Shown piece by piece: positions 1-22,406 of a DNA stretch of 22,406 nt. Both the position numbers and the translations under genes were made by a program. This DNA comes from a virus (taxonomy: Duplodnaviria; Heunggongvirae; Uroviricota; Caudoviricetes). Below the pieces are notes generated by a model that worked only from the letters and a program-made list of their open reading frames with translations, was not told the DNA's origin and ran no database searches. The first letter of the stretch is position 1, and the number at the start of each line of letters is the position of its first letter. The stretch is from the IMG/VR virus record IMGVR_UViG_2537562020_000008. The stretch is one strand, 5' to 3'.

Positions 1-179
1 CCGAACTGCATACGCTGCAGTTTCGCAACCAGCGCCTTCAGCCGGTTGATTTCGGAAGCATAAGCCGCCACCCGCTGTGAGAGCAGGCGGTTGTATTCGG
101 CCATCTGGCGGATGGTGTCCTGTTGCGTCTGCAACAGTGCCCGCAGGCGGGCATTCTCATGAGCAAGTGAGGTGTCCAT
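1..179 (-). CDS. IS66-family transposase (third ORF), N-terminal fragment only; gene runs off the window
   Basis: Reverse-complement translation from ATG at 179 gives MDTSLAHENARLRALLQTQQDTIRQMAEYNRLLSQRVAAYASEINRLKALVAKLQRMQFG, which matches my recollection of IS66 transposase N-termini (leucine-zipper-like). Confidence 0.75.
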   Translation of the reverse strand, partial: MDTSLAHENARLRALLQTQQDTIRQMAEYNRLLSQRVAAYASEINRLKALVAKLQRMQF

Positions 180-198
180 ATCCTCACTTTACAACGGG

Positions 199-546
199 TT
201 ATATGCGGATGCCAGCGCGTTCCGTTCGTTTCGGGTGCTTCCAGTTGATACCTTCAAGAAGCATGGATAACTGAGCCGGAGTAAGGTGAACCTTTCCATC
301 GCGGGTGACCGGCCAGACGAAGCGGCCCCGCTCCAGGCGTTTGGTGAAGAGGCACAGTCCGTCACTGTCAGCCCACAACACTTTTATCTGGTCACCCCGG
401 CGTCCGCGGAAGATGAACAGGTGTCCGGAGAACGGGTCATCCTTCAGGACGTTCTGAACTTTTGATGCCAGGCCGTTAAAGCCATTTCGCATATCGGTGA
501 TACCTGCAACCAGCCAGATACGCGAACCTGCAGGGAGAGATATCAT
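199..546 (-). CDS. IS66-family Orf2 (TnpB-like accessory protein)
   Basis: 115-aa ORF; the segment GITDMRNGFNGLASKVQNVLKDDPFSGHLFIFRGRRGDQIKVLWADSDGLCLFTKRLERGRFVWP is typical of IS66 Orf2; ATGA overlap with upstream orf1. Confidence 0.85.
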   Translation of the reverse strand: MISLPAGSRIWLVAGITDMRNGFNGLASKVQNVLKDDPFSGHLFIFRGRRGDQIKVLWADSDGLCLFTKRLERGRFVWPVTRDGKVHLTPAQLSMLLEGINWKHPKRTERAGIRI

Positions 547-1223
547 CAGTGGCTGCTCCCTTTTATTTCGCGGATAAGTGTCTGTAATAACGCCGGCGTC
601 AGTTTACCTTTAAGCCTGAGAGTTCCGGCCGGCAGAACCAGCTCACAACACAGACTGTCGGACGGTGTATTTATCTGCTCTGGTTCCTGTGCGGGGGCCG
701 GGATTTTATTATCCGGCTCCGGCGTTAACGTCACGGGAAGCAGTGCCGGCATATTTTTTCCGGAAGGCAGCAGGCCACCTTTCCGGTATTGATGGCGCCA
801 GTTGAAGAGCAGGTTATCGTTGATTCCGTTTTCCCGGGCGATCTGCGCCACACAGGCTCCGGGCTGCAGTGACTGCTCCACTAAGGCGATTTTAAACTCA
901 TAAGGGAAGTTGGGCCGCCGGGGACGTTTTTTTACCACGGGGGCTTCGGATATAACGGTGCTTTCAGGACGTACGACTGGTATCGTGGAAAATTGTCCGT
1001 AAAGGCAGGCATCAAGTTCCTGCTCCGACATGCCTGCGGGCAAAGGCCACGAAAGGCCAGCTCTCCGAAAGCGCACGAACATACTACAAACTGTTGATTT
1101 TGGTACACCCAGGCGACGCCCGGCCACAACCCGGGGTAAATGTTCTTCAAAGTGAAGACGTAAAGCTTCAGTGATCCAGGTCCGGTGTTTCATACGATAG
1201 TGTCCATTAAAAATGATGGACAT
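546..1223 (-). CDS. IS66-family Orf1 (TnpA-like accessory protein, HTH-containing)
   Basis: 225-aa ORF directly upstream of, and overlapping, IS66 Orf2; position and order fit IS66 architecture. True start may be the internal Met (MKHRTW...). Confidence 0.7.
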   Translation of the reverse strand: MSIIFNGHYRMKHRTWITEALRLHFEEHLPRVVAGRRLGVPKSTVCSMFVRFRRAGLSWPLPAGMSEQELDACLYGQFSTIPVVRPESTVISEAPVVKKRPRRPNFPYEFKIALVEQSLQPGACVAQIARENGINDNLLFNWRHQYRKGGLLPSGKNMPALLPVTLTPEPDNKIPAPAQEPEQINTPSDSLCCELVLPAGTLRLKGKLTPALLQTLIREIKGSSH

Positions 1224-1272
1224 TATTTTTGTAGAGCCGGAGGAAACAGACCAGACGGTTTAAATGAGCCGG

Positions 1273-1554
1273 TTACTGCCAAGCCGCAAACACCTGTCCC
1301 GGCTCATTTCCCAGTTCAGGCGATGGCGGCGGTTTTCCATCCCGTCTATCCGGAGGAAACAACACGATCTCCACTGAAGCAGGTGCCGACGTTGGTTTCG
1401 GCAGACGACGTAACTGCTCAACTATTGCTGCGCACGCCGCGCTCTGGAATTTTCGCCCCGCCGCGCTTATCAGGCTCTTACCAGCAAACGCCCCTTTGTT
1501 GGGGTGTCGCCAGTACGTGTTCACGCTGGGCGGAAAAGGCAGGATCAGCTTCAT
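1273..1554 (-). pseudogene. rusA: RusA-family Holliday-junction resolvase, apparently truncated at the C-terminus by the IS66-family insertion
   Basis: N-terminal MKLILPFPPSVNTYWR and ...FPPDRR resemble RusA (LPWPPSNNRYYR ... PDRRRRD). After DRR the sequence becomes a Pro/Gly-rich tail (DGKPPPSPELGNEPGQVFAAWQ) lying where the IS end is expected. Confidence 0.5.
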
Positions 1555-1877
1555 ACTTTCAGGTCCCTCTCATGTAACCAGTGGGTTGCACGCAGCCTTG
1601 CGTTTTCCTCACCGGCAAGCAGTGCGCGGATAATCCCGACCGCCTCGCTGTCGTCGTCCTTCCCCGCGGTATGAAGCGTTATCCCCCGGGCCACGCCACG
1701 CTTTATCGTGATGACGCCTTTTTTCTCCAGTGCGCGAAGATGCTCCACCGCTGCATTCACCGAACGGTATCCCAGCATGGTTGCCACCTCCTGATTGGTT
1801 GGCGGGAAGCCACGTTCTTTCTGATAAGAAATCAGCATATCCAGCACCTGCTGCTGGCATTGAGTTAACGTCGTCAT
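1551..1877 (-). CDS. LexA-like N-terminal DNA-binding domain protein (winged HTH), lacking the S24 peptidase domain
   Basis: 108 aa; TQCQQQVLDMLISYQKERGFPPTNQEVATMLGYRSVNAAVEHLRALEKKGVITI closely parallels the LexA N-terminal domain ([52 protein letters not shown]). ATGA-type overlaps with both neighbours. Confidence 0.6.
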   Translation of the reverse strand: MTTLTQCQQQVLDMLISYQKERGFPPTNQEVATMLGYRSVNAAVEHLRALEKKGVITIKRGVARGITLHTAGKDDDSEAVGIIRALLAGEENARLRATHWLHERDLKV

Positions 1878-2527
1878 GCCGCCATCTCCCTGACCAGTTT
1901 TTCCGCCTGCTGGCGAACCTGCGCCAGAAACGCCTCACCACATGCCTCAAGTTCATCGCGCCCGATGTAGCTGATTGCCGGTCCCTTCCAGGTCTTGTCA
2001 AAAACAGCAATAGCACCAGCGAAAAAAGCTCCTGTCGGTACCTGCTTCTCGTCTTTCGGGATAAACCAGACAGGCAGTTCAAAACCAATACGCCCGCGAA
2101 TAAAAGCAATATGATCTGCATCTTCCGGCCACCACACTTCGCTGGTGGCAGCTTTGATCAGGAAAACATAGCGCCCGCCCTTATCACGCATGGCACTGGC
2201 ATGTTTCATGATGTAACGCATGCCGGTGATGTATTGCCCCTCATGCTGACTGGCGCGGCTGTATGGGGGATTACCAAAGGCAGCACCTTTAAGCTCCGCA
2301 AGACGTTCTGACCAGTCATGCGCCAGCGCGTTGTCTTCCGCCGTGTAATACGCGGCACATTTGGCGTTATCACCGTCAGTGAACAGATCCAGAACAAACG
2401 GGCCAAACAGGGTGTTAATTCCCCAGAAAATGTTGTCCGGCGTGCGCCACTGATCGCCCACTTCCTTCAGTTCATGGGCTGGTTTGTTCCGCAGTTCCAC
2501 CAGCGCCTGGCAATATTTATTACTCAT
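1874..2527 (-). CDS. Phage-type DNA N-6-adenine methyltransferase (Dam family)
   Basis: Contains the NPPY catalytic motif (AAFGNPPYSR) in a context typical of phage Dam-like methyltransferases. Start taken at the ATG at 2527, which shares one nucleotide with the upstream gene stop (TAATG); a longer ORF to 2560 exists. Confidence 0.8.
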   Translation of the reverse strand: MSNKYCQALVELRNKPAHELKEVGDQWRTPDNIFWGINTLFGPFVLDLFTDGDNAKCAAYYTAEDNALAHDWSERLAELKGAAFGNPPYSRASQHEGQYITGMRYIMKHASAMRDKGGRYVFLIKAATSEVWWPEDADHIAFIRGRIGFELPVWFIPKDEKQVPTGAFFAGAIAVFDKTWKGPAISYIGRDELEACGEAFLAQVRQQAEKLVREMAA

Positions 2528-3021
2528 TAAGCCCCCACGTAATTCCCTGACAGATACCACTCTTCACCCGATGCAGCGCGCTTGCTGCTTTTCCGTAAGC
2601 ACCGCTCACGACGCGTCAGAAAATTGTTTCGTTCTGGCTGGGAGTGGCTTTCACGGAATGCCGCCATCCACACGGTTGCAGCACGACGGTATAAGCCCCT
2701 GGACTCCAGTTCTTCCGCCTGGCGGGTCAGGCACAAAATCACACGGGGATCGTTAGTGCCGACATAGAAATTGCGCACAGGTCTGGTTTCACGAACTGGT
2801 TGTGGTTCCGGTTCCTGCGCTCTCTCAGTCAGGCGCGGGAAATGTCTGCGTGTATCTCCTTCACAACGGTGAGCCACACGCCCACTCTGACGTAACTTGC
2901 TTGCTGACTGCAGAACGCGCTGCCGTGAGTAACCGGCAAAAGCATCCGCAATATCTCCGGAAGTACAGCCCGGATGGGCTTCAATGAATTTCTGAACGTC
3001 ATTCAAAAGACTCATGCTCAC
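2527..3021 (-). CDS. Prophage regulatory protein: N-terminal winged-helix-like region and C-terminal PerC-like motif (family uncertain)
   Basis: 164 aa; C-terminal AEELESRGLYRRAATVWMAAF recalls the PerC/Pch signature from memory. GTGA overlap with the upstream replication gene. Confidence 0.45.
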   Translation of the reverse strand: MSMSLLNDVQKFIEAHPGCTSGDIADAFAGYSRQRVLQSASKLRQSGRVAHRCEGDTRRHFPRLTERAQEPEPQPVRETRPVRNFYVGTNDPRVILCLTRQAEELESRGLYRRAATVWMAAFRESHSQPERNNFLTRRERCLRKSSKRAASGEEWYLSGNYVGA

Positions 3022-3959
3022 CCCCTGAATCCTGCCGGGATCTGGCTGTAGTCCACGTTGTCGTAACTGGCTTTGAAGTACGGGTCTTCGCGTTTTTCGG
3101 TGTACGTGCTGACGGACGGCGATAAGCGCAGGGAAAGCTCATCCCATTTTTCCCGCAGCTTCGACGGGCTGAGCACGTTACGGCACCAGAACGGATCGCG
3201 ACTGACGCGGCTGTACATCTCGCAGATTTGTTTATGAGTACGACCATCCTGCACACACATCAGGCGAATTTCGTTTGCCCAGGCTGTCCAGTTCGGTTCT
3301 TTGGGACGAACCACCTCGCCGTCACATTCGGCGGCCTGCTCGTACAGGGCGATGATTTTTTTCCAGAGCCACTGTGCGCAGGTCAAATCATCCTGCGTTC
3401 CCCACTGGCGCTTTTTAGGGCTGAATACAACCGCATCAGGATGGCGAGTTAAAAACTCCTGTTCAGCCGTCTGCGTGTCCGGTTGCGAAGCGTCCGGACG
3501 AGAAGTTTTTTTATCTGACGGATCATGTTTTGATTTTACTGACGGATCCCCGCCAGATTCTGACGGGTGAAAACCCGCTTTTTTGCCAGATTTCGACGCA
3601 TCAAATTTTGACGGGTCAGATTTTGATGCGTCAGATTTTGACGGGTCAGAATCTGACAGTTGAGAAAATGCCGCTGCCTGAAGCTTCGCAACGTTAAGCT
3701 GATAAACATTCGACGCATTGCGGTTACCCTGGCGACGCGCCTTACGCGTTAACCAGCCTTCTGCTTCCAGCCGTGCGATAGCCGTTCTGACGGTACTCAT
3801 CCCCGCGCCAATCTGACGGGCAATGGTTTCAATTGATGGCCAGCACACCCCTTCGTCATTACTGAAATCAGCCAGGCGGGCCATAATTGCCACGCTGGAT
3901 AATTTCATGCCTGACGCTGCGCAACCATCCCATACATAGCCGGTTAATTTAGTGCTCAT
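3018..3959 (-). CDS. Phage replication initiation protein (lambda O-like organiser: N-terminal HTH, repeat-rich linker, C-terminal domain)
   Basis: 313 aa; N-terminal HTH (WPSIETIARQIGAGMSTVRTAIARLEAEGWLTR); central repeats SDSDPSKSDASKSDPSKFDASKS encoded by the iteron DNA; sits downstream of cro and the CII-like gene as in lambdoid phages. Confidence 0.75.
   Translation of the reverse strand: MSTKLTGYVWDGCAASGMKLSSVAIMARLADFSNDEGVCWPSIETIARQIGAGMSTVRTAIARLEAEGWLTRKARRQGNRNASNVYQLNVAKLQAAAFSQLSDSDPSKSDASKSDPSKFDASKSGKKAGFHPSESGGDPSVKSKHDPSDKKTSRPDASQPDTQTAEQEFLTRHPDAVVFSPKKRQWGTQDDLTCAQWLWKKIIALYEQAAECDGEVVRPKEPNWTAWANEIRLMCVQDGRTHKQICEMYSRVSRDPFWCRNVLSPSKLREKWDELSLRLSPSVSTYTEKREDPYFKASYDNVDYSQIPAGFRG
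3513..3664. repeat. Iteron array (about 8 copies of a ~15-bp unit, core TGACGG/TGATGCG) inside the replication gene; putative phage origin
   Basis: Seen directly: attttgacgggtcag / attttgatgcgtcag / attttgacgggtcag / aatctgacagttgag in tandem at 3605..3664, with more degenerate copies at 3513..3604 and an A/T-rich stretch at about 3500..3512. Confidence 0.7.
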
Positions 3960-3968
3960 GACCGACCT

Positions 3969-4307
3969 CTATTTCCCTGAATTTACGACGAAACTGTTCG
4001 AGCGGACTGAAGCACTCATGCTCATAGCCTTCGCGGAGGTAGATAACCCGTTGTGTTTCCGGTTCCCAACGAATGACTCTGACGGGCACTCCGTAGTGAT
4101 CTTTGAACCAGCGGTTAACTTGTCGCAAAGGACTGTCTCCTTCTGCCGGTTGAAATCACCCACAGCCCACTCTGCAAAGCTGTGGGTTACAATTTCCCTG
4201 TCACCTGGTACATTTACTGCATAGCAATACTCCACCTTCGCTTTTCCACCCGGTACAGGAAGCGCAATCAGTTGCGAGCGACGGTAGTGTGTTGTTAAAC
4301 TGTTCAT
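3969..4307 (-). CDS. Hypothetical prophage protein (112 aa)
   Basis: ATGA overlap with the upstream CII-like gene supports translation. An alternative frame with a good RBS and TTG start near 4127 also exists, so the gene model is uncertain. Confidence 0.4.
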
Positions 4308-4855
4308 GCGTTAGTTTCTCCACAGTCACGACACGCCACGGCGCCCGGAGCTGCACACTCGCGGGCGTCATTACTTTCTGAAATGCAAAAGATTTTGTAG
4401 ACCAGTGCTGCATGCTCCTGCAGCTTCGAAATTGAGAGATATAGCTCGTCGTTAATTGCAGTTTTCTCATGCGGTTCCACTACACCGTCTTCGATTGCTG
4501 AACGAATCTGTTTTGAATAACTGCCGATCTGTTCAATGACCTCCAGCAGGCGTTGGTTGATATCGGCGTTGTCCACATCCTCGACATCAGGAAGAGACAC
4601 AAAGACGCCATTTGCAGACTGCGCCACAGCGTCAGCAATGAAGTGAGTTCCACCAGCACGTTGCAAAATCATTGCCCATCCCAGCGGGAAAATCTGATCG
4701 CCATCGGCACGAAGGCGGTTAAATAATGCGTTCTCTGTTACATCCAGCCAGTCAGCAGCTTCAGCGTACCCCCCCGGCAACGCTGCGATAGTTTTTCTGA
4801 CAGCTTTCACGTACCACTCAGGCTGTTTTTCTACTTTCCAGTGATGCTTACCCAC
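4304..4855 (-). CDS. Phage regulatory protein, CII-like (CP76 family) - tentative
   Basis: 183 aa immediately downstream of cro in the rightward operon; overall pattern ([35 protein letters not shown]...) resembles CP76-type CII regulators as I recall them. Confidence 0.5.
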
Positions 4856-5108
4856 GGTTCACCTCCTGTTCCTGTGGTTTAAACCCATTCTGGTTTTGGC
4901 TAGATTGAAAACGTGCCGGATAAAGAATCTGCATTTCGCTGACTTCACCCTTAAAAAAATTGGCTAAACGTTCTGCAAGCTCGATAGATGGAATCTGCTC
5001 CAGCCTCTCAATACGACTCAACGTCGCTGGATTGACTTGAACACCCGCAGCAACATGCTGCAAAGTGAAACCATGCGCCTTACGCACATTTCGTAATGGT
5101 GATTGCAT
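4848..5108 (-). CDS. cro: Cro-like HTH (XRE-family) repressor
   Basis: 86 aa; HTH motif GFTLQHVAAGVQVNPATLSRIERLEQIPSIELAERLANFF; divergent from the cI-like gene across an operator-rich 97-bp spacer. Confidence 0.8.
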   Translation of the reverse strand: MQSPLRNVRKAHGFTLQHVAAGVQVNPATLSRIERLEQIPSIELAERLANFFKGEVSEMQILYPARFQSSQNQNGFKPQEQEVNRG

Positions 5109-5205
5109 ACGCCCTCCAAATATTGCGCGTTATGCATGTTATTTCACGCAATTATTTTGCGCAAGTTGATTTGCTTATCACGCAATAAAGAAATGTAATA
5201 AACGC
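5109..5205. promoter_or_regulatory. Immunity-region operator/promoter region (OR-like) between cro and cI
   Basis: Seen directly: ttgcgcgttatgcat (5123..5137), cacgcaattattttgcg (5144..5160) and ttgcttatcacgcaa (5171..5185), sharing TTGC/GCAA half-sites. Confidence 0.7.
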
Positions 5206-5898
5206 ATGAACATAGGAAACCGAGTCAGACAACTTCGCCAAGCGAAGAACATGAAAATCGCCGATCTCGCTGAAGCGATAGGAGTAGATGCGGCGAACAT
5301 CTCGCGCTTAGAAACGGGTAAGCAAAAACAATTTACCGAACAAACACTGAGTAATATTGCCAAGAGCTTAGGTGTTGATATTGCTGATCTCTTTACCTCT
5401 GCCCACAAAAGTAATACTGTATATAAAAACAGTAATAATGAGGATGTTGCGCAGGTGAAGGATGTGTTCCGTATTGAAATGCTGGATATCAGTGCCAGTG
5501 CGGGAAATGGCCTTATCCAGGGCGGTGATGTCATTGATGTGATTCATGCCATCGAATACAGAACTGATAATGCTGTATCAATGTTCGGCGGACGACCAGC
5601 CAATCACATCAAAGTTATCAACGTTCGTGGGGACAGTATGTGTCCAACCATTGAGCCCGGAGATCTCATCTTCGTTGATGTCAGCATCAATCAGTTTGAT
5701 GGTGATGGTATATATGTCTTTGGTTTTGATGACAAAATATACGTTAAAAGACTTCAAATGATTCCTGACAAACTGCTGGTGATTTCTGATAACCAGATTT
5801 ACCGTGAATGGGGAATTACTAGCGAAAACGAACACCGATTCATGGTCTTTGGAAAGGTCTTAATCAGTCAGTCGCAAACCCTTAAGAGACATAATTAA
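5206..5898 (+). CDS. cI: cI-like prophage repressor (N-terminal XRE HTH + C-terminal LexA-like S24 peptidase domain)
   Basis: 230 aa; HTH (MKIADLAEAIGVDAANISRLETGK) and C-terminal S24-type region (VRGDSMCPTIEPGDLIFVD ... IYVKRL). Confidence 0.9.
   Translation: MNIGNRVRQLRQAKNMKIADLAEAIGVDAANISRLETGKQKQFTEQTLSNIAKSLGVDIADLFTSAHKSNTVYKNSNNEDVAQVKDVFRIEMLDISASAGNGLIQGGDVIDVIHAIEYRTDNAVSMFGGRPANHIKVINVRGDSMCPTIEPGDLIFVDVSINQFDGDGIYVFGFDDKIYVKRLQMIPDKLLVISDNQIYREWGITSENEHRFMVFGKVLISQSQTLKRHN
5415..5434. promoter_or_regulatory. Near-consensus SOS (LexA) box embedded in the cI coding sequence
   Basis: Seen directly: TACTGTATATAAAAACAGTA versus consensus TACTGTATATATATACAGTA; CTGT-N8-ACAG core intact. 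Confidence 0.5.
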
Positions 5899-5917
5899 CC
5901 TCAATATCCCATCCATC

Positions 5918-5942
5918 GGCCACCGAAAGGTGGCTTTTTATT
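5918..5942 (+). terminator. Rho-independent terminator downstream of cI
   Basis: GGCCACC-gaaa-GGTGGC hairpin followed by TTTTTATT, 20 nt after the cI stop. Confidence 0.75.
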
Positions 5943-5952
5943 ACCTATAAAT

Positions 5953-5989
5953 TTGCATATCTCGCAAATATCACTTGCATGTCTCGCAA
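5953..5989. promoter_or_regulatory. OL-like operator pair (two 15-bp TTGC-N7-GCAA sites, 22 bp apart)
   Basis: Seen directly: ttgcatatctcgcaa (5953..5967) and ttgcatgtctcgcaa (5975..5989), same half-sites as the cro/cI intergenic sites. Confidence 0.55.
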
Positions 5990-6175
5990 TTTAATTTTAT
6001 CTTTTGTTCCAGACCAACTACAGGATTACAACAAAATCTGGTTGCAACACGGTGCATGTGTCGTAAGCAGTCAGTAAATGTCAAAAACGAACAGGCAGGA
6101 CGCCCACGAAGTAGCCGCCTGGGGCATATGAAGTCCAGGATGATTCGTTGAGTCATGTTGTGCCACTAGGCACTC

Positions 6176-6472
6176 ATGTTAAAGCAGGTGTATGAAATGA
6201 AAGTCCAGATTTTAAACAATAACTGTGAAGTCGTTTGGTCATACGACATAGCCGCCCCTGTAGATCAGAGCGGCGATAGCTGGACCAATGGGAAACATCA
6301 GATTATGGCTGGAGTTGTGTTCTCTTTACGCCGTGCTTTGGAACAGGCTGAAGTATTTCCATCAGACCCTGAATGGAAATGGCCTTTTTCTATTTGTCCA
6401 AATTCGGAGAGCACATTTCAGAAAATTGGTCAGAAAGTCGCACTCGAAGAGCATCAGCCAACTGTTTCCTGA
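6176..6472 (+). CDS. Hypothetical moron protein (possible start at 6196, MKVQILNN...)
   Basis: ORF downstream of the OL-like sites at the position occupied by rexAB/sieB in lambdoid phages. Its 3' end overlaps the convergent ORF by ~80 bp, so one of the two may be mis-called. Confidence 0.35.
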   Translation: MLKQVYEMKVQILNNNCEVVWSYDIAAPVDQSGDSWTNGKHQIMAGVVFSLRRALEQAEVFPSDPEWKWPFSICPNSESTFQKIGQKVALEEHQPTVS

Positions 6473-6635
6473 TTTTTTCAGGTAACTCGTCGGCATCGCA
6501 GAAACAACAACGCTCGATCATGTTGAAAGCCGATTCGTAGAACTGTTTCTGCTGAGTGTCGCTGAGACAGGAAAAGAGCGACGTTACGATGATTTTATTA
6601 ATTGCATTATCAAGTTCTTTTTCATCAAAAGTCAT
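6390..6635 (-). CDS. Hypothetical small Cys-containing protein (81 aa)
   Basis: Good RBS (aaaaggaaaatcaaATG); contains CCFC; no family recognised. Confidence 0.45.
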   Translation of the reverse strand: MTFDEKELDNAINKIIVTSLFSCLSDTQQKQFYESAFNMIERCCFCDADELPEKIRKQLADALRVRLSDQFSEMCSPNLDK

Positions 6636-7072
6636 TTGATTTTCCTTTTATGTATACGGGCTTAAAAGGATACCACCGAGCCTGAAGTGGTGAAAAGACA
6701 GGCACATAACAGCTAAGTATTTTCAACCAAAGAGAATCCTTAGCGTTGTGGTGAATGCGGCTCAGCGCACGCGGGTTAAGGTTGAGGCTGACAGTCGACC
6801 TTCTGTGGATACCCACCCGTCTGGTGTGCAACCTTCGCCAGGCACCGGGAGGCACCCGGCACCACAACTTTATGCTGTGTGTAGTCCTGGCGGTACCAGT
6901 TTGTACCCTTGCTTCCGGCTGGTACCGTCCTTTTTACAAAACAGAGAAGAGCATCACCGGACGACGGGCTCATAACCCAATCCATCCGGGCGGCTGCCAC
7001 CGCAGGTGTTCTTCTCTGTTTTGTGGAGAAACTAATCGGCCTTGCAGGGTCGATATGATGAGGAGCAGCAAA

Positions 7073-7447
7073 ATGGCTAGCGAACGCAGTACTGATGTAC
7101 AGGCATTTATCGGGGAGCTGGACGGCGGCGTATTTGAAACCAAAATCGGCGCAGTTCTCAGTGAAGTCGCTTCCGGTGTGATGAACAGGAGGGACAGCTG
7201 ATAGAAACAGAAGCCACTGGAGCACCTCAAAAACACCATCATACACTAAATCAGTAAGTTGGCAGCATCACCCAAACTCTCATATGTTCGCCCGACTAAC
7301 CGCGGGAAAATTTCCGAAGAAGACACCACCGAAACGCCGATGTATGTCAATCGCGGTGGTCGCCTGACTATTCTGCAGGAAGACCAGGGACAATTACTGA
7401 CTCTTGCCGGTGAACCTGACGGAAAACTCCGCGCAGCAGGTCATTAA
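7073..7447 (+). pseudogene. Prophage gene split by a ~90-bp IS1-end remnant (5' part 7073..7182, 3' part 7273..7447)
   Basis: RBS gaggagcagcaaaATG at 7073; 5' fragment MASERSTDVQAFIGELDGGVFETKIGAVLSEVASGV stops inside the IS1-derived segment; 3' fragment KLSYVRPTNRGKISEED...GKLRAAGH resumes in the same frame after it. Confidence 0.4.
7183..7272 (-). mobile_element. IS1 left-end remnant (IRL plus ~65 bp; the rest of IS1 absent)
   Basis: Reverse complement reads GGTGATGCTGCCAACTTACTGATTTAGTGTATGATGGTGTTTTTGAGGTGCTCCAGTGGCTTCTGTTTCTATCAGCTGTCCCTCCTGTTCA, matching the IS1 terminus and start of insA as I recall it; similarity ends near 7183. Confidence 0.8.
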
Positions 7448-7512
7448 TATCGTTCTTAATTAACTGATTATTTATCTCATCACTGAATATCTTTATATAG
7501 TGAGGACTTATT

Positions 7513-8337
7513 ATGTCTCAGAACTTAGACGCAACCGCAATTAATCAAATCCATGCCCTTATTTCTGCTCAGGGTGTTAATGAAATTATCAGTAAGATTG
7601 GTGCCGATGCTGTGGCATTGCCTGAGAATTTCCGCATTCATGATCTGGAAAAATTTAATTTAAATCGCTTCCGTTTCCGTGGTGCGCTTTCCACTGCCAG
7701 CATCGATGACTTTACCCGTTATTCTAAAGATCTTGCAGATGAAGGCACCCGCTGCTTTATCGATGCTGATAATATGCGAGCCGTCAGTGTGCTTAACCTG
7801 GGTACTATTGATGAACCAGGTCACGCAGATAACACCGCCACTCTCAAACTGAAAAAGACAGCACCGTTCTCTGCCCTGTTGTCTGTTAACGGCGAGCGTA
7901 ACTCCCAGAAGTCACTGGCAGAATGGATTGAAGACTGGGCCGACTACCTTGTGGGCTTTGATGCTAATGGTGACGCCATTCAGGCAACAAAAGCGGCTGC
8001 GGCGGTCCGTAAAATCACGATTGAAGCAAACCAGACCGCTGATTTTGAAGACAATGACTTCAGCGGCAAACGCTCTCTGATGGAGTCTGTCGAAGCGAAG
8101 ACCAAAGACATTATGCCAGTGGCATTTGAATTTAAATGCATTCCGTTTGAAGGTCTGAAAGAACGTCCGTTTAAATTACGCCTCAGCATTATCACTGGCG
8201 ATCGTCCGGTACTGGTTCTGCGCATTATTCAGCTGGAGGCGGTGCAGGAAGAAATGGCTAACGAATTTCGTGATCTGCTTGTTGAGAAATTCAAGGACAG
8301 CAAAGTAGAAACCTTTATTGGTACTTTCACCGCCTGA
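7513..8337 (+). CDS. yfdQ: YfdQ-like prophage protein (DUF2303 family)
   Basis: 274 aa, the length of the CPS-53 prophage protein YfdQ, and followed by YfdR/S/T-like genes in the same order. Confidence 0.7.
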
Positions 8338-8465
8338 TTTCATTACTGCAAATGCCCCTGCGGGGGCATTTATGGAAACGTAATTAACTCAATAATCGCC
8401 TGATGGCGAGGGTTTTCTTTAACCAAAATTCAGCGCGGTGCAGCGCATATAAAGTGGAGAACAAA

Positions 8466-9002
8466 ATGTCATTTATTAAAACTTTTTCCGGGAAGCATTT
8501 TTATTATGACAAGATAAATAAAGACGACATCGTTATTAACGATATCGCGTTTTCCCTTTCAAATATCTGTCGCTTTGCCGGTCATCTTTCGCACTTCTAC
8601 AGCGTCGCCCAACATGCGGTTCTTTGCAGCCAGCTGGTGCCGCAGGAATTTGCTTTTGAAGCGTTAATGCATGATGCAACAGAAGCGTATTGCCAGGACA
8701 TTCCCGCACCACTGAAACGCCTTCTTCCTGACTATAAACGGATGGAAGAAAAAATAGACGCCGTAATCCGTGAGAAATACGGGTTACCTCCTGTTATGAG
8801 CACGCCAGTGAAATATGCCGATCTCATCATGCTGGCAACCGAACGCCGCGATCTCGGGCTTGATGATGGCTCTTTCTGGCCTGTACTGGAAGGTATCCCG
8901 GCAACAGAGATGTTCAACGTGATTCCACTGGCACCGGGCCATGCCTACGGGATGTTTATGGAACGCTTTAACGAGTTATCGGAGTTACGCAAATGCGCAT
9001 GA
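8466..9002 (+). CDS. yfdR: YfdR-like HD-domain protein (5'-deoxynucleotidase family)
   Basis: 178 aa from the ATG at 8466 (RBS GGAGAA); HD-like motif region (FAGHLSHFYSVAQHA ... ALMHDATEAY). The ORF track extends upstream to 8403. Confidence 0.7.
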   Translation: MSFIKTFSGKHFYYDKINKDDIVINDIAFSLSNICRFAGHLSHFYSVAQHAVLCSQLVPQEFAFEALMHDATEAYCQDIPAPLKRLLPDYKRMEEKIDAVIREKYGLPPVMSTPVKYADLIMLATERRDLGLDDGSFWPVLEGIPATEMFNVIPLAPGHAYGMFMERFNELSELRKCA

Positions 9003-9355
9003 ATGTTTTCGAAATGGAAGGGTTTCTTCGTGGGAGATGTGTACCGCGAGATCTGAAAGTAAATGAAACAGATGCTGAATACCTGGTGCGTAAATTCGAT
9101 GCGCTTGAAGCTAAATGTGCAGCACAGGAAAACAAAGTAATACCAGTGTCAACTGAACTGCCACCAGCAAATGAAAGTGTTTTGTTATTCGATGCTAACG
9201 GAGAAGGCTGGCTAATTGGCTGGCGTTCTCTCTGGTACACCTGGGGACAAAAAGAAACCGGAGAATGGCAGTGGACATTTCAGGTCGGGGACCTTGAAAA
9301 CGTCAATATCACTCACTGGGCAGTAATGCCAAAAGCACCGGAGGCTGGAGCATAA
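8993..9355 (+). CDS. yfdS: YfdS-like prophage protein
   Basis: 120 aa; overlaps the yfdR stop; Trp-rich C-terminus (WLIGWRSLWYTWGQKETGEWQW). Confidence 0.65.
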   Translation: MRMNVFEMEGFLRGRCVPRDLKVNETDAEYLVRKFDALEAKCAAQENKVIPVSTELPPANESVLLFDANGEGWLIGWRSLWYTWGQKETGEWQWTFQVGDLENVNITHWAVMPKAPEAGA

Positions 9356-9660
9356 TGACCACTTTTACCGACAAAGAACTGATTAAAGAAATTAAAGAGC
9401 GTATCAGCAGCCTTGACGTGCGAGACGATATTGAGCGCCGTGCTTATGAAATCGCACTCCTATCTCTGGAAGTAGAACCAGATGAACGCGAAGCTTATGA
9501 ATTATTCATGGAAAAGCGTTTCGGTGACTTAGTAGATCGTCGGAGAGCAAAAAACGGCGATAACGAATACATGGAATGGGATATGACTCTCGGTTGGATC
9601 GTCTGGCAGCAACGAGCTGGTATCCATTTTTCAACAATGTCACAGCAAGAGGTGAAATAA
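9355..9660 (+). CDS. yfdT: YfdT-like prophage protein
   Basis: 101 aa; start coupled to the yfdS stop. Confidence 0.65.
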   Translation: MTTFTDKELIKEIKERISSLDVRDDIERRAYEIALLSLEVEPDEREAYELFMEKRFGDLVDRRRAKNGDNEYMEWDMTLGWIVWQQRAGIHFSTMSQQEVK

Positions 9661-10010
9661 TGGAGCCATACAGCCTCACACTCGATGAGGCCTGTCATTT
9701 TCTCAAGATATCCAGACCGACTGCCATTAACTGGATACGCACAGGGCGTCTTCAGGCAACACGCAAAGATCCCACTAAGAATAAATCTCCTTACCTCACA
9801 ACACGACAAGCCTGCATTGCGGCTCTTCAGTCTCCGCTGCATACTGTCCAGGTGAGCGCGGGTGATGGCATAACAGAGGAAAGAAAATGTCACTCTTCCG
9901 CAGAGGTGAAATATGGTACGCCAGTTTCACATTGCCGAACGGTAAAAGATTTAAACAGTCTCTTGGAACAAAGGACAAAAGGCAGGCGACAGAACTCCAT
10001 GACAAGCTAA
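9660..10010 (+). CDS. xis: Excisionase (P22 Xis-like HTH)
   Basis: [40 protein letters not shown]... matches the P22-type Xis pattern; start shares a nucleotide with the yfdT stop (TAATG); 3' end overlaps the int start. Confidence 0.75.
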
Positions 10011-11050
10011 AGGCTGAAGCATGGCGGGTCAGCAAACTTGGTGAAATACCTGATATAACGTTCGAGGAAGCGTGTGTCAGGTGGCTTGAAGAGAAAGCAC
10101 ATAAAAAATCACTGGACGATGACAAAAGCCGGATCGGATTCTGGCTTCAACATTTCGCAGGAATGCAACTAAGAGACATTACTGAATCAAAAATTTATTC
10201 AGCAATGCAGAAAATGACGAACCGGCGTCATGAGGAAAACTGGAAACTCAGGGCAGAAGCATGCAGAAAAAAAGGGAAACCTGTTCCAGAATACACGCCA
10301 AAACCAGCGTCCGTTGCAACGAAGGCTACGCATCTTTCATTTATAAAGGCCCTACTAAGAGCCGCAGAGCGTGAATGGAAAATGCTGGATAAGGCACCAA
10401 TTATTAAAGTGCCTCAACCAAAGAATAAACGGATCCGCTGGCTGGAGCCCCATGAAGCACAAAGGCTGATTGATGAATGTCCGGAGCCATTAAAGTCTGT
10501 TGTTGAATTTGCACTGGCAACAGGCTTAAGACGCTCGAACATCATCAACCTTGAATGGCAACAAATAGATATGCAGCGCCGGGTGGCATGGATAAACCCG
10601 GAAGAGAGTAAATCAAACCGCGCAATCGGCGTTGCGCTGAATGATACTGCATGTCGCGTTTTGAAAAAACAAATCGGGAATCATCACCGTTGGGTATTTG
10701 TGTACAAGGAAAGCTGTACCAAACCAGACGGAACGAAAGCGCCAACAGTAAGGAAGATGCGGTATGACGCAAACACAGCCTGGAAAGCAGCGCTGAGACG
10801 GGCTGGTATTGATGATTTCAGATTTCACGACTTGAGACACACCTGGGCAAGTTGGCTGGTTCAAGCCGGAGTCCCGTTGTCAGTGTTACAGGAAATGGGA
10901 GGCTGGGAGTCTATCGAAATGGTTCGTCGATATGCTCACCTTGCACCTAATCACCTTACCGAACACGCACGGCAAATAGACTCGATCCTGAACCCATCGG
11001 TCCCAAATTCGTCCCAGTCAAAAAATAAGGAAGGTACTAATGATGTGTAA
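9887..11050 (+). CDS. int: Tyrosine integrase, P22-type
   Basis: 387 aa; [47 protein letters not shown]... and C-terminal [41 protein letters not shown] (catalytic R..HxxR..Y); abuts a tRNA-Thr 3' fragment. Confidence 0.9.
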
Positions 11051-11113: not shown

Positions 11114-11201
11114 TAAATTGATCTTGTAAAATCAATACCTATCGAATTTAAATGGATTTTTTGCCACAATATTGCCACAGTTCGTTAGGAATCAGACAGA
11201 A

Positions 11202-12275
11202 ATGGCGACTATACGCAAACGTGGTAACTACCAATGGGAAGCTCAAATCCGTAAACGTGGTTTTCCCTCTCAAACCAAAACCTTTAACACCAAAGTAGAA
11301 GCAGAAGCTTGGGCCAAAATGATCGAGTCAGAAATGGCGAGAGGAGTTTGGCTTAGCCGCAGCGAAGCGGAATCTACGACATTGTATGAAGCCCTAACGC
11401 GATATGAAAAAGAGATTGTTCCCGACAAAAAAGGGGCAGTGCAAGACCGATCATTGGTGCGGATACTAAAAGGCACTCAGCTGGCGAAAAACTATATGGC
11501 CAGCATCAGGAGTGCCGATGTCGCCAAGCTGAGAGATGAATGGTTGAAAATCTATGCTCCTGCAACCGTTTTAAGGCGTTTGGCCTTACTTTCTCATGTA
11601 TTCAATGTTTCGCGGAAAGAATGGGGCATGGAGAGCCTGCTGAACCCCGTAGAGGCCATTCGTAAACCCCAACCCAAGAACTCCAGGACCAGACGCCTAG
11701 AAGCGCTGCCTGTAGTTTCTGAGAAAACCGGTGTTACGTCAGGAAAGCAAATAGCCAACGAGATCGAACATATCATCGCCGCAACACATTCATTAGTATT
11801 GCCAGCAATCATTCTTCTGGCGTTAGAGACAGCCATGCGCCGTAGCGAAATCGCAGAGCTTCGATGGCGCTTTATCGATCTTGATCGGCGAGTTGCACAT
11901 CTGCCGGATACTAAGAATGGTAATGCCCGCGATGTCCCTTTATCAACGAAAGCCATTACGATACTGTCCAGTCTCAAGGAACATTCTAAGCCAGCTGCTG
12001 ATAAGGTTTTTGATATGCGTGCAGACGCGATTACCCGAGCTTTTGACCGAGCTGTAAAACGAGCCAGAGAACGATACGAGAAAACAAACTCATTATGTGA
12101 TGAATCTTTCCTTAAAGATTTAAGATTTCATGACCTTCGACATGAAGCAACTTCTCGACTTGCTGAAATTTTCCCTATGCATGAACTAACCAAAATTACA
12201 GGACATAAAGATCCAAGAATGCTAATGCGGTATTATCATCCAAAAGCTGAAGATTTGGCGTTAAAGTTGAAATAA
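11202..12275 (+). CDS. Second tyrosine recombinase/integrase (island integrase; a longer ORF begins at 11172)
   Basis: RBS AGGAA before the ATG at 11202; C-terminal LRFHDLRHEATSRL ... LMRYYH catalytic signature. Confidence 0.8.
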   Translation: MATIRKRGNYQWEAQIRKRGFPSQTKTFNTKVEAEAWAKMIESEMARGVWLSRSEAESTTLYEALTRYEKEIVPDKKGAVQDRSLVRILKGTQLAKNYMASIRSADVAKLRDEWLKIYAPATVLRRLALLSHVFNVSRKEWGMESLLNPVEAIRKPQPKNSRTRRLEALPVVSEKTGVTSGKQIANEIEHIIAATHSLVLPAIILLALETAMRRSEIAELRWRFIDLDRRVAHLPDTKNGNARDVPLSTKAITILSSLKEHSKPAADKVFDMRADAITRAFDRAVKRARERYEKTNSLCDESFLKDLRFHDLRHEATSRLAEIFPMHELTKITGHKDPRMLMRYYHPKAEDLALKLK

Positions 12276-13411: not shown

Positions 13412-13624
13412 CTAGTGAGCTATTTTATAGTCCCTTAATGCATTTTTAAGTAACTCCGTTTGCTCATCAGCATCATCATAATTATAAATTCCCGTAGCAG
13501 AATAATACTCTTCGATGCATAGAATATTTATCAATGGTTCACAAATCTCTTTAATAAAATCCTTGTTGTTATCGGCAAAAATAATTTTTATTCCTTCCAA
13601 AACAAAGCTATTATAATCAGCCAT
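13412..13624 (-). CDS. Hypothetical small acidic protein (70 aa)
   Basis: Strong RBS (AGGAGGTGGATAATG); acidic composition; no family recognised. Confidence 0.55.
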   Translation of the reverse strand: MADYNSFVLEGIKIIFADNNKDFIKEICEPLINILCIEEYYSATGIYNYDDADEQTELLKNALRDYKIAH

Positions 13625-13693
13625 TATCCACCTCCTTACAGGTGTTTAGTGGAAGCGTCAGTTAACGTTACCGCGCTAACTGACGCGCCTAAA

Positions 13694-16517: not shown

Positions 16518-16584
16518 ACAGGCGGTAGCCGATCAGCCTCGCAGAGCAGGACTCCGTTGAGCAGCTCAGCTGCGAATAAGGGAA

Positions 16585-16635
16585 GGTAAAGTAGAAGCAC
16601 CGTTTACGGTGGGCCTACTTTACATATCCTGCCCT
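16585..16635. other. oriT-like site: 9-bp inverted repeat around an inner palindrome, followed by a MOBP-type nick motif ATCCTGC
   Basis: Seen directly: GTAAAGTAG-aagcaccgtttacggtgggc-CTACTTTAC then acatATCCTGCcc at 16626..16632; lies ~70 bp upstream of mobC. Confidence 0.4.
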
Positions 16636-18688: not shown

Positions 18689-19951
18689 TCAAATTTTCTT
18701 TTTAGCGATAAAAATACAGTAAAAATATAAGGTTTTGATAATGTGATTAATGCTGTGCACCTCGCGAAATAATAGTAATAGCTTCCTCATAAAAGACATG
18801 AAACTAAGTTCGTTGTATTTAGTGCGTTCCATTCCTTCCTTAGCGAAATAGTAGGTTATCATCTGAATTGACTCTTTATATTCATATTTATAATGTGCAA
18901 TGCCATTTCGCAGCTTGTTGTCTAAAGCATTGAGATCAACTATATAAAAGCTATCATCCAATCCGCTTATTTTCGTGCCTAAATCAACGTTTGCATATTC
19001 GTTGAGACTAGAAAAACCTTTAATTAAATCGCCTTTTTTATTTAGTCTTACTGAATCGTCAAAAATATTATGATCTCCGCGTTTTAATAAGTTATTCAAT
19101 CCGGCCACAATTATTAATTGCCGAGAGAATACTTCAGATAAGTCTTTGTAAAAATTGTTACAGTCATCAAATTCGGCAGTTGAAACTCGAGCAGGAATCA
19201 TTGATAAATCTACGTTTTTATCATAATCATAGTAAAGCGCTGGGCGTGAAGGGAGTTCAAAGTCAAGCATTTTGGGATATAGGCTTAAACAATCGAAATG
19301 CAAACTTTTCAGAAACCCACTTCCAATAATATCATCTAAAAATTTATTTAGCTGTTTTGGATGATTTTTCTGAATATAATGAAGAAATTGTGGCATTTTT
19401 TCACTAATTTCAGCATTATGTGCATGTATTGTAAAGGGAAATGACATTGCAGAGGTTGCTGTATAAAGTGCGGAAAGGATATCTTGTATTTTTAGCGAAC
19501 GAGGTTTTTTCAGAGTAGGTAATTCTTTCATTAGGTTACTGAAAGTATTGTAATTTCCTTGTTTGTATTGAGTAATGAGTCGCTGGAGCTTATCGCGATG
19601 TTTATAAATATAATTCATTCCATTTAGATGTGCGTTCAGCATTAAGTATTTTTCATGACCTATTGCACTTGTTATTTTTAAGAATGCTGTTTTTCCTTTT
19701 TCGTATTTTCCAAAGCCTACGGGAAAATCTAAATGCAAATCGATGAATGGATTTGTTGTGCCAAAGTCATTGCTTTCTACAGTTTCCGCACCGTTAAATA
19801 CAGGCTCTCCCTCCCCAAGAGTAAACGATATATTATTCTCACAATTTGGACATGCAAATTGGAACGGTTGTATGTCTCGATTAGACATACCTATTCTTGT
19901 ATCAATGACCGTGTCACATACAAGGCATTTAAATTGCTGTAAAAAATTCAT
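18689..19951 (-). CDS. Uncharacterised 420-aa protein: N-terminal CxxC...CxxC zinc ribbon and C-terminal R-N-x3-H (HEPN-type) motif
   Basis: C9/C12 and C34/C37 (CLVC ... CPNC); RNGIAH at aa 348..353; strongly AT-rich codon usage; no family recognised. Confidence 0.6.
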   Translation of the reverse strand: MNFLQQFKCLVCDTVIDTRIGMSNRDIQPFQFACPNCENNISFTLGEGEPVFNGAETVESNDFGTTNPFIDLHLDFPVGFGKYEKGKTAFLKITSAIGHEKYLMLNAHLNGMNYIYKHRDKLQRLITQYKQGNYNTFSNLMKELPTLKKPRSLKIQDILSALYTATSAMSFPFTIHAHNAEISEKMPQFLHYIQKNHPKQLNKFLDDIIGSGFLKSLHFDCLSLYPKMLDFELPSRPALYYDYDKNVDLSMIPARVSTAEFDDCNNFYKDLSEVFSRQLIIVAGLNNLLKRGDHNIFDDSVRLNKKGDLIKGFSSLNEYANVDLGTKISGLDDSFYIVDLNALDNKLRNGIAHYKYEYKESIQMITYYFAKEGMERTKYNELSFMSFMRKLLLLFREVHSINHIIKTLYFYCIFIAKKKI

Positions 19952-20198: not shown

Positions 20199-20726
20199 TT
20201 AACAATTTGTAGTCTTTCCGACCAAATTACCGCGCGCAGTGTGACCCCATACTTTAGAGGTCACCTTATCTCTTTCCACTAGTTGTTTACGGTGCATCAA
20301 ATCGGCAAGCAGTATTGAAACAAAGAACATGAATTTTGTTTTGGGAGTATTAGGAACATCTTTGGGTCCAAGCCAAGGTAGCTGCTCCAGTTGATTTTGT
20401 ATTTTGGGTGTTGCGAAGCTAACACCATTCCAACTATGCCCAAAAGCATTTCTAATGCTACGCAGTGTGTTTAGTTCTTTGTATTCGTGTTCCATTATCA
20501 GTCCTAACGCATATGCTAAGCCTGTTCTAGCAGCAAAAGATGATAAAGGCGCTGTTGCACCATTCAGTAGACCTTTAGCTACTTTGTCATTTAACAGGTG
20601 AGCCTGGATGATCTCGGATAACCACTCATCGAAAATGGATGCTGCTATTAGAACAGAGCCACGATCTGATTCTTTATTTAGTTCGGACAAAAATTGACCG
20701 AGTTCAATTTGGGTTTTATCACTCAC
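20199..20726 (-). CDS. Uncharacterised 175-aa alpha-helical protein with R-N-x3-H (HEPN-type) motif; by-eye resemblance to MtlR/DUF4145-like domains
   Basis: RNAFGH at aa 92..97 in ...LAYALGLIMEHEYKELNTLRSIRNAFGHSW; by-eye resemblance to the MtlR helical domain. Confidence 0.55.
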   Translation of the reverse strand: MSDKTQIELGQFLSELNKESDRGSVLIAASIFDEWLSEIIQAHLLNDKVAKGLLNGATAPLSSFAARTGLAYALGLIMEHEYKELNTLRSIRNAFGHSWNGVSFATPKIQNQLEQLPWLGPKDVPNTPKTKFMFFVSILLADLMHRKQLVERDKVTSKVWGHTARGNLVGKTTNC

Positions 20727-21214
20727 AGACTCTGGAACTCCTTTCTCAAAAATTCAACATGAGGACGCTTCGGTCGCACATCAATCTTAACCATTAGATT
20801 ATGAAATTGTGTTAGGTCTGGGTCAAACTATGAACAAAAACAGAAAAAATTATTGTGACGTTATTTAGGGGGACCTACAATGACACATTTTAAACAATTA
20901 CTTTAATATCAATAAATTGGATCGTATTACTGTGTTCCTATTATTGGTTTAGCTCAGCTTGTCGCTCACAGCGGACCTTCAGCTCGATAGCAAGTCCGCT
21001 CCGTTGGAGTGCCAGATGCGCTCTAAATTTGATGGCTAGTATTGAAGAGATACTTGGGCATCATGGTTATGGTGTAAATACCGTCTGTGATACCCGCAGA
21101 GGTGCTAGGTTTAGGCACTGAGAAGGATACATTGAACATGAATTCAGAGTGATGTAACACAAGTCATAGAAAATTAGTGATTTATATTGAAAAGGGGGTT
21201 ATTTTATTAAAGCA

Positions 21215-21234
21215 AGGCCGCCTTTAGGCAGCCT
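21215..21234 (-). terminator. Putative terminator hairpin for the 225-aa gene
   Basis: On the minus-strand RNA: AGGCUGCC-UAAA-GGCGGCCU (one G-U pair) followed by a U-rich tract; 6 nt after the stop codon. Confidence 0.4.
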
Positions 21235-21240
21235 CTTATT

Positions 21241-21918
21241 TTACATGTAGATATTCATTAAACTGTCAAATAGTCTTTTGGTTAACTCTTTTTCCGCTCG
21301 TGCTTCGATTTGAGCCATACCATTTCGGAAGAGTTTTAATTTACCGCTAAATTCTTGGTCATGAATAGTACATGTCAATCGATCAAGTCTCATTTTTTTG
21401 TGAATAAGCTCATCTTTGAAATATTTTTTAAGATCGCTGGTACTATTAATTTGCATCTTGGCAAGAGCAAATTCAGCAACTTGAATTTGAGATACATCTA
21501 GTTGCACTATATTAAGTGTCAACTCTGTGTTTAAAGAACTGAACCATATGAACGGGTCAATCTCAATCTCTTCTAAGCTGGTACCAAGACCAAGGTTTTT
21601 TACCAGTGCCTGAGCAAATGGTTTAAGTGTTCTCGGTGGATTATCAATAAGTAAAACTGGGGTGTATTGTTCGTCAAAACTGAAAGATGTTACTCTATAT
21701 TCAATGCGTTCAACAGCGGTACTGTTGCCGTATAGATTACTTATTCTATCTTCGCTAATTATCTTTTCGATGAAGCGAGCGTGAAAATGAGATGTTCGTG
21801 ATTTATCAAATATAAACCCTTTCCCTTTCTCTTCAGTAAAAGGATCACGCATGAGTTTTTCAACTGTTTCACTAGTAGTGAAACGATTGTTGAGTTTAAT
21901 CCATTTAAATTTTTTCAT
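21241..21918 (-). CDS. Hypothetical protein (225 aa), unknown function
   Basis: Long ORF with AT-rich codon usage; 4-nt gap to the upstream small ORF suggests an operon; no family recognised. Confidence 0.55.
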   Translation of the reverse strand: MKKFKWIKLNNRFTTSETVEKLMRDPFTEEKGKGFIFDKSRTSHFHARFIEKIISEDRISNLYGNSTAVERIEYRVTSFSFDEQYTPVLLIDNPPRTLKPFAQALVKNLGLGTSLEEIEIDPFIWFSSLNTELTLNIVQLDVSQIQVAEFALAKMQINSTSDLKKYFKDELIHKKMRLDRLTCTIHDQEFSGKLKLFRNGMAQIEARAEKELTKRLFDSLMNIYM

Positions 21919-21922
21919 GCTC

Positions 21923-22120
21923 TTACACCTTTTTACCCGTCACGATATTATAGGCGTCTGCTGCTGACTGTTCAATTAGTAGGCTGATTTTCTTCTTTTC
22001 AACTTCATTTGCTGCACGAATAGTAACATTGTATCCACTACCTTTTTGGTTATTGATTCCTTTAATTTGATAGGAAAAATCAGAGCAATTTTCTGAATCC
22101 TTAAAGAAAGCTTCAACCAA
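21923..22120 (-). CDS. Hypothetical small protein, possibly 5'-truncated by the adjacent IS1
   Basis: Reading frame stays open into the IS1 terminus; the first candidate start is a TTG right at the IS1 boundary. Confidence 0.35.
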   Translation of the reverse strand: MVEAFFKDSENCSDFSYQIKGINNQKGSGYNVTIRAANEVEKKKISLLIEQSAADAYNIVTGKKV

Positions 22121-22125
22121 AATCC

Positions 22126-22406
22126 GGTAGTGACTCCAACTTACTGATAGTGTTTTATGTTCAGATAATGCCCGATGACCTTGTCATGCAGCTCCACCGA
22201 TTTTGAGAACGACAGTGACTTCCGTCCCAGCCTTGCCAGATGTTGTCTCAGATTCAGATTATGTCGCTCAATGCGCTGAGTGTAACGCTTGCTGATAACG
22301 TGCAGCTTTCCCTTCAGGCGTGATTCATACAGCGGCCAGCCATCCGTCATCCATACCACGACCTCAAAGGCCGACAGCAGGCTCAGAAGACGCGCCAGTG
22401 TGGCCA
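22126..22406 (-). mobile_element. IS1 (right-end inverted repeat at 22126..22148; element continues beyond window end)
   Basis: Terminus GGTAGTGACTCCAACTTACTGAT matches the IS1 IR as recalled, followed by insB coding sequence. Confidence 0.9.
22141..22406 (-). CDS. insB: IS1 transposase InsB, C-terminal part (5' end outside window)
   Basis: ...[71 protein letters not shown] matches the IS1 InsB C-terminus. Confidence 0.9.

Follow-up and report, generated by a model that had tools for sequence, protein, structure and literature searches.

A three-gene system whose proteins have no clear domains protects against phage P1 (Rousset et al., 2022; PMC9122126). The term "3HP" is absent from the main text of that paper, where the system is identified through the protein sequences in Table S2A; the name Rst_3HP occurs in the DefenseFinder paper. 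Searches for "3HP" returned survey papers only, and the literature searched contains no published mechanism for it. Mechanistic clues come from elsewhere. The GAPS4 nuclease docks on a two-subunit ring of GAPS4b, and DNA breaks act as the trigger (Mahata et al., bioRxiv 10.1101/2025.09.07.674715). RdgC forms ring dimers with non-specific DNA binding, RexA is an RdgC-like DNA binder of the Rex exclusion system, and Iml3-Chl4 is a heterodimer of two RdgC-like folds that contacts DNA; all are non-specific DNA binders forming dimers or heterodimers (PMC11077077). Here, we describe a stretch of 22,406 nucleotides (hereafter the window) that ends in a 3HP locus broken by an insertion sequence.

A preliminary description of this DNA had recognised a 225-aa ORF preceded by a small ORF abutting IS1, and had taken them for an uncharacterised two-gene operon, neither member of which resembled a known family. 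The arrangement itself is as described: both ORFs lie on the minus strand, and the four nucleotides GAGC separate the TAA stop (21923-21925) of the first from the ATG (21918) of the second. Their supposed lack of relatives does not hold, since the 225-aa product matches the PADLOC model Hp3 over its full length (E 3.4e-80, profile positions 1-223 of 227) and the small ORF corresponds to positions 287-353 in the Hp2 profile, which has 359 positions (E 1.1e-27). The models Hp1, Hp2 and Hp3 are those of the 3HP (Rst_3HP) system in the naming of DefenseFinder and PADLOC. Scans of Pfam and NCBIfam with Hp3, the product of the small ORF, Hp2 and Hp1 gave nothing above threshold. The two ORFs are thus the distal part of a three-gene operon that is catalogued as an anti-phage system.

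The intact form of the locus was recovered from homologous loci lacking IS1, as the preliminary description had envisaged. When positions 20900-22406 were compared by megablast with complete E. coli genomes, seven chromosomes matched 20900-22128 at 99.8-99.9% and then continued without IS1; in the pairwise alignment to an IS1-free locus, identity ends exactly at 22125. Strains PM22 (L001; intact operon at NZ_CP074019 882050-884794) and E8 (L002) encode on one strand a 333-aa "PD-(D/E)XK nuclease domain-containing protein" and two hypothetical proteins of 353 and 225 aa, followed by an MltR-family protein of 175 aa and a hypothetical protein of 420 aa. The first three match the PADLOC models Hp1 (5.1e-176, positions 1-333 of 333), Hp2 (1.6e-158) and Hp3 (E value as above). 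Intact copies would be labelled as such by standard defence-system finders. The third protein of Table S2A (Rousset et al., 2022) is 52% identical to the 225-aa protein of the window (E 5e-88), and between the second and the intact protein of 353 aa the identity is 65% (E 1e-170); an anti-phage role of the E. coli homologue is suggested by this 52-65% identity to tested proteins. The "two-gene operon" is therefore a disrupted copy of a three-gene system that is known and has been validated by experiment. The features of the window are collected in Table 1.

Table 1. Features of the 3HP locus, the adjoining IS1 and the rest of the window.
Feature	Position	Strand	Remarks
hp3, intact third 3HP gene, 225 aa	21241-21918	-	ATG start; PADLOC Hp3 match
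Terminator-like hairpin just past the hp3 stop	21214-21235	-	9-bp GC-rich stem, 4-nt loop, then UGCUUUAAUAAAAU
Shine-Dalgarno-like motif AAGGTG	21926-21931	-	7 nt 5' of the hp3 ATG, within the last hp2 codons; read from the sequence
Promoter-like site TTGAAC-17-TATAAT	21947-21975	-	10/12 consensus matches; inside the hp2 remnant; -10 ends about 29 nt before the hp3 ATG
hp2 remnant (3' part), stop and codons 288-353 of 353	21923-22125	-	pseudogene fragment; alignment to the intact locus ends at 22125; PADLOC Hp2
65-aa ORF, TTG start	21923-22120	-	lies within the hp2 remnant
One copy of the 9-bp IS1 target-site duplication	22117-22125		GGATTTTGG on the minus strand
Right end of IS1: terminal inverted repeat and 3' part of insB	22126-22406	-	contig stops inside the element; Pfam domain DDE_Tnp_IS1 on the cut ORF
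420-aa protein beside 175-aa MtlR/HEPN-like protein	18689-19951 and 20199-20726	-	N-terminal CxxC...CxxC zinc ribbon in the former; Pfam MtlR 2.7e-6 in the latter
traJ-II RNA, upstream of NikA-like traJ gene	16535-16634	-	Rfam 93 bits, above gathering score
PtaRNA1, plasmid-transferred antisense antitoxin RNA	13618-13690	+	next to trbL; Rfam 48.6 bits, above gathering score
Two tandem tyrosine integrase genes	9887-11050 and 11172-12275	+	
ORFs with transposase HTH domain (HTH_Tnp_1)	199-1223	-	left contig end

The 65-aa ORF is a gene fragment, not a gene: it is the C-terminal 19% of Hp2, and an outcome in which it is complete and unrelated to the IS1 junction is contradicted by the IS1-free loci, where it forms the 3' end of the 353-aa gene. 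The intact protein ends in ...GIGDRILVEAFFKDSEN...TGKKV, which identifies the TTG "start" of the small ORF as the internal codon for Leu-289 and the remnant as residues 288-353; this TTG falls within the target-site duplication of IS1. The frame does stay open into the IS1 inverted repeat, as had been noticed, for about 21 codons upstream of the TTG at 22120, of which about 19 are inside IS1. There is no start codon in this extension, so that the first start is the TTG itself, the nearest GGAG lying 13 nt upstream of it. A TTG without a usable Shine-Dalgarno sequence makes translation unlikely, and by these signals the hp2 remnant is probably untranslated. A toxin-antitoxin reading of the ORF pair was dropped because the small ORF is a gene fragment. 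A homologue search with the 69-aa remnant gave fragments only, and the full Hp2 of PM22 was used instead. Among intact loci Hp2 comes in two allelic lengths: the 353-aa allele (L003 and L012, 8935-9996) ends, like that of the window, 4 nt short of hp3. A longer allele of 359 aa (L004-L011, 8935-10014) overlaps the hp3 start by 14 nt.

How did hp2 become separated from its 5' part? From position 22126 the window reads as the IS1 inverted repeat GGTAGTGACTCC..., and for 22126-22406 there are thousands of matches with the annotation "IS1 family transposase". The exact 65-aa ORF occurs in seven contigs from five assemblies, one of which (L016, AQCZ01000128.1, GCA_000354315.2) is identical to the window; the window is thus a draft contig broken in the IS1 repeat. 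A sister contig (L013, GCA_000356705.1) spans the element and carries, in order, Hp1 (333 aa), a 290-aa ORF, insA, insB, the 65-aa ORF and Hp3. On the 5' side of IS1, tblastn found Hp1 and Hp2 residues 1-289 to be 100% identical to the intact alleles, and on the other side Hp3 shows zero substitutions. Positions 9228-9995 of this contig are a complete 768-bp IS1 with terminal inverted repeats and with insA and insB, whose products have the Pfam domains InsA and InsB. The 9-bp sequence GGATTTTGG stands at either side of the element and occurs as a single copy in the IS1-free locus; the junction is identical to that of the window. The N-terminal fragment of Hp2, made up of residues 1-289 plus one Gly, ends in ...GDRILG followed by a stop within the left end of IS1. 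This is a simple transposition with 9-bp duplication that split hp2 without deletion; that hp1 and the 5' part of hp2 also lie beyond IS1 in the assembly of the window is inferred from the sister assembly. The proposal that IS1 had truncated the upstream ORF at its 5' end is thus right, the gene having 353 aa in IS1-free loci, whereas its start was not removed but lies, in the sister contig, 289 codons beyond IS1. Directly 5' of hp3 the window has no full-length Hp2, the gene being split at codon 289, and it ends inside IS1; a gene for Hp1 precedes hp2 in the sister contig, on the far side of IS1, and likewise in every IS1-free locus.

The split allele appears to be young. The exact Hp3 occurs in 1470 index blocks of the collection, with an intact trio in all ten places listed, against seven contigs and five assemblies for the split allele, which makes the latter rare and lineage-specific; the exact IS1 junction has no match in species-representative genomes. 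The insertion is probably recent, and an Hp3 without substitutions fits this. Its effect on Hp2 can be read from the predicted structure (359-aa model), in which the N-terminal fragment lacks residues 290-353 and, with them, the final beta-strands of the RdgC-like body and its long C-terminal helix. On the basis of this model the system was most likely inactivated by the split of hp2, a loss of function that we infer because no published test was found that each of the three genes is required. The strain carrying IS1 would then most likely hold an inactivated defence system with hp3 intact but orphaned.

Can hp3 still be expressed? IS1 is polar on downstream genes, and it is probably polar here on transcription of hp3 from the operon promoter. 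The 3' end of insB lies on the minus strand at the junction, which is the right end of IS1, so that the element is transcribed in the same direction as both ORFs. An outward promoter supplied by IS1 had been considered possible in the preliminary description. A consensus scan shows no promoter-like site across the junction, and within IS1 a single match faces outward, a weak one (9/12) at 22286-22258. The strongest candidate for driving hp3 is the TTGAAC-17-TATAAT site, a putative IS1-independent promoter judged from its sequence; the scan found 14 promoter-like matches, a number inflated by the AT-richness of the DNA. Both hexamers are retained in diverged loci, which says little about promoter function because they encode conserved Ile-Glu and Tyr-Asn. 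At its other end the operon is probably closed by the hairpin past the hp3 stop (minimum free energy -15.7 kcal/mol, z-score -2.85 against shuffles), which a consensus terminator scan missed because its T-run is weak.

The three genes travel together. A locus search with a close Hp3 alignment gave three loci only. Homologues of Hp1 and Hp2 invariably precede that of Hp3 (44-73% identity) in Serratia, Photorhabdus and Xenorhabdus; in a Klebsiella P2-like phage, the trio lies at the P2 hotspot, flanked by the portal and replication genes. All three genes are thus found in every locus examined (E. coli, Serratia, Photorhabdus, Xenorhabdus and the P2-like phage). The genes for the MtlR-like and 420-aa proteins are absent from the Serratia, Photorhabdus and Xenorhabdus 3HP loci. 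Hence the trio is a conserved unit, and the two neighbours previously noted for their HEPN motif are a separate module of the island. A profile search of 1.84 billion representatives yielded 693 Hp3-family clusters, nearly all of about 225 aa, and no Pfam domain was found in the nine distant Hp3 relatives scanned. One distant relative (P0150; L023, 1537-4415, a metagenome contig) lies downstream of a PDDEXK_GAPS4 gene and of short genes of 214 and 151 aa, which shows that the link of Hp3 to a GAPS4-type nuclease reaches far beyond enterobacteria; another (P0092; L022) sits in a context with fragmented gene calls. The 214- and 151-aa genes together have about the size of Hp2 and may be a naturally split middle component. 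Decay is also seen elsewhere: Hp1 of Xenorhabdus bovienii T228 (L020, 3917-4905) appears as two overlapping tblastn pieces in different frames, which suggests a frameshifted hp1 and thus another decayed 3HP copy.

The E. coli operon sits on an integrative island of roughly 14 kb that adjoins tRNA-Thr (thrW) and proA. In IS1-free loci, the 420-aa gene is followed by remnants of traJ, trbJ and trbL and by an integrase; at the opposite end, about 700 bp from the nuclease gene, comes tRNA-Thr, and then proA. The traJ-II RNA and PtaRNA1 matches in the window indicate that the island carries remnants of an IncP-like transfer region. The AT-richness of this region had been noted correctly, GC being 0.32-0.38 beyond about 17 kb, compared with 0.55 at the window's left end. 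The 175-aa and 420-aa genes adjoin 3HP in every copy of the thrW island, even in those without conjugation-gene remnants (L010, L011), and are absent from the 3HP loci of Serratia, Photorhabdus, Xenorhabdus and the P2-like phage. Neither protein has a PADLOC match, and the pair may be a separate, uncatalogued defence or toxin-antitoxin pair. Positions 1-9000 of the window are a lambdoid prophage segment with a CI-like repressor, a CII-like regulator, a replication HTH protein, a Dam methylase and DUF2303. This segment directly adjoins the 3HP-island integrase, an arrangement suggesting that two elements integrated in tandem at thrW, and the HTH_Tnp_1 ORFs suggest that the left contig end, too, may adjoin an insertion sequence.

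What might the three proteins do? Structure prediction (monomer models) assigns an RdgC/Iml3(CENP-L)-Chl4-like DNA-binding fold to both Hp2 and Hp3: in predicted Hp2 a SAP/HeH-like helical module at the N-terminus precedes the RdgC-like body, and predicted Hp3 consists of such a body alone. By sequence, Hp3 gave a weak match to Pfam CENP-L (E 0.071), later understood as a fold-level likeness; a Pfam RdgC match was found neither for Hp3 or Hp2 nor for the nine distant Hp3 relatives, so that the RdgC assignment concerns fold and not sequence family. PF26110 is precomputed on some Hp2 homologues. Profile-profile comparison of Hp2 with Hp3 showed no similarity (hhalign probability 0.35%), and for this reason the two are not callable as paralogues on sequence. 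The Hp1 of intact relatives carries the precomputed Pfam domain PF26115, PDDEXK_GAPS4, for which the local Pfam copy gave no match, and its motifs HPSD (47-50) and DLK (69-71) are invariant in four Hp1 sequences. A GAPS4a-type nuclease with an N-terminal HGxD-SxK-like motif is thus present in intact relatives, outside the window.

These predictions suggest a model in which Hp2 and Hp3 together would enclose DNA in a clasp or ring that resembles Iml3-Chl4 or RdgC. The clasp would sense phage DNA, its ends or recombination intermediates, and would then position or release Hp1, a GAPS4a-type PD-(D/E)XK nuclease (HPSD...DLK), to degrade DNA. The clasp is drawn from predicted folds, given the lack of Hp2-Hp3 profile similarity and of a Pfam RdgC match. 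By structural prediction and by analogy, a DNA-clasping Hp2-Hp3 pair may thus control the Hp1 nuclease, a function probably inactivated in the strain of the window. We put at roughly 0.85 the probability that the locus is the downstream end of the 3HP operon hp1-hp2-hp3 on an approximately 14-kb island, with IS1 in hp2 codon 289 and a DNA clasp that would control a nuclease as its mechanism. A more specific formulation is tentative, and we hold it to be somewhat doubtful: 3HP would be a three-component relative of GAPS4, in which a heterodimeric clasp of the same-fold proteins Hp2 and Hp3 gates Hp1, and the orphan Hp3 may act alone from the internal promoter.

Three other readings have been weighed against that of an IS1-disrupted 3HP operon. 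The 4-nt spacing and the shared strand are what would speak for an independent two-gene operon of unknown function, the first gene having simply lost its 5' end. Set against them are the intact form, always a trio with an upstream nuclease gene from E. coli, Serratia, Photorhabdus and Xenorhabdus to the P2-like phage, the size of the small ORF, 19% of a 353-aa protein, and the cataloguing of the trio in PADLOC as Hp1, Hp2 and Hp3; this reading is refuted by the IS1-free loci, the PADLOC matches and the sister contig, and next to no credence is left for it. Slightly more, though still very little, can be given to the idea that the split system defends after all, either because Hp2 residues 1-289 plus Gly reassemble with the 65-aa C-terminal fragment or because the N-terminal fragment suffices. 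The sister contig encodes the two fragments and has an intact hp1, split proteins sometimes complement each other, and the middle component of a distant relative appears as genes of 214 and 151 aa; yet the remnant has only a TTG start with no usable Shine-Dalgarno sequence, IS1 stands between the operon promoter and hp3, and the lost segment (residues about 287-348) holds strands and the long C-terminal helix of an RdgC-like body predicted with high confidence.

An orphan Hp3 that functions alone is a less far-fetched possibility than a working split system, and we nevertheless consider it improbable. Hp3 would be made from the TTGAAC-17-TATAAT site or by read-through from IS1, and as an RdgC/RexA-like protein it could modulate recombination or hamper phage, in the way that RexA is able to act in the absence of RexB. 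The gene is 100% intact and has a Shine-Dalgarno-like motif, a promoter-like site lies 29 nt upstream, IS1 is co-directional, and RexA is active independently of RexB, with orphan RexA homologues known to exist (PMC11077077). Perfect identity is, however, equally expected from a recent insertion without selection; the split allele is limited to seven contigs in five assemblies against 1470 Hp3 blocks; promoter matches are inflated in AT-rich DNA, where 14 were found, and the hexamers overlap conserved codons. Moreover, every clearly readable Hp3 context adjoins a GAPS4-type nuclease gene, the gene calls of L022 being fragmented. An IS1-disrupted 3HP operon thus accounts best for the locus, and in annotation the 65-aa ORF should become a pseudogene fragment and the locus an IS1-disrupted 3HP system rather than a new operon.

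Compared with described cases of insertional gene disruption by IS1, the event shows nothing unusual: a 768-bp element with inverted repeats, insA and insB, and a 9-bp duplication are the same here. It cleanly illustrates the probable knock-out, by a mobile element, of a defence system borne by a genomic island. As the system itself is already known, the only added value lies in the fold-based hypothesis and the link to GAPS4, which offer a testable mechanism for the validated 3HP system. With regard to RdgC, lambda RexA and Iml3-Chl4 (CENP-L/N), identity is only 9-14% and Hp2 and Hp3 have no Pfam RdgC match; Hp3 has 225 aa against 303 aa for RdgC, and dimerisation and DNA binding of Hp2 and Hp3 are hypothetical. 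The likeness to GAPS4 is that Hp1 has a Pfam domain named after GAPS4a and that its HPSD...DLK resembles HGxD-SxK of GAPS4a; in both systems a nuclease is accompanied by a non-enzymatic partner or partners predicted to encircle or clasp DNA. 3HP differs in having two partner genes, Hp2 and Hp3, in place of the single GAPS4b with its homodimeric ring, and therefore departs from the two-component architecture of GAPS4.

The closest relative remains 3HP itself (Rousset et al., 2022; PADLOC PDLC03004-03006). The validated system sits in the P2-prophage hotspot, whereas that described here is on a thrW-integrated island with IncP-like trbJ, trbL and traJ remnants; further differences are that IS1 interrupts hp2 in the window and that hp1 lies off the contig. 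The three families and their order, hp1-hp2-hp3, are the same in both, and the intact alleles match over their full length.
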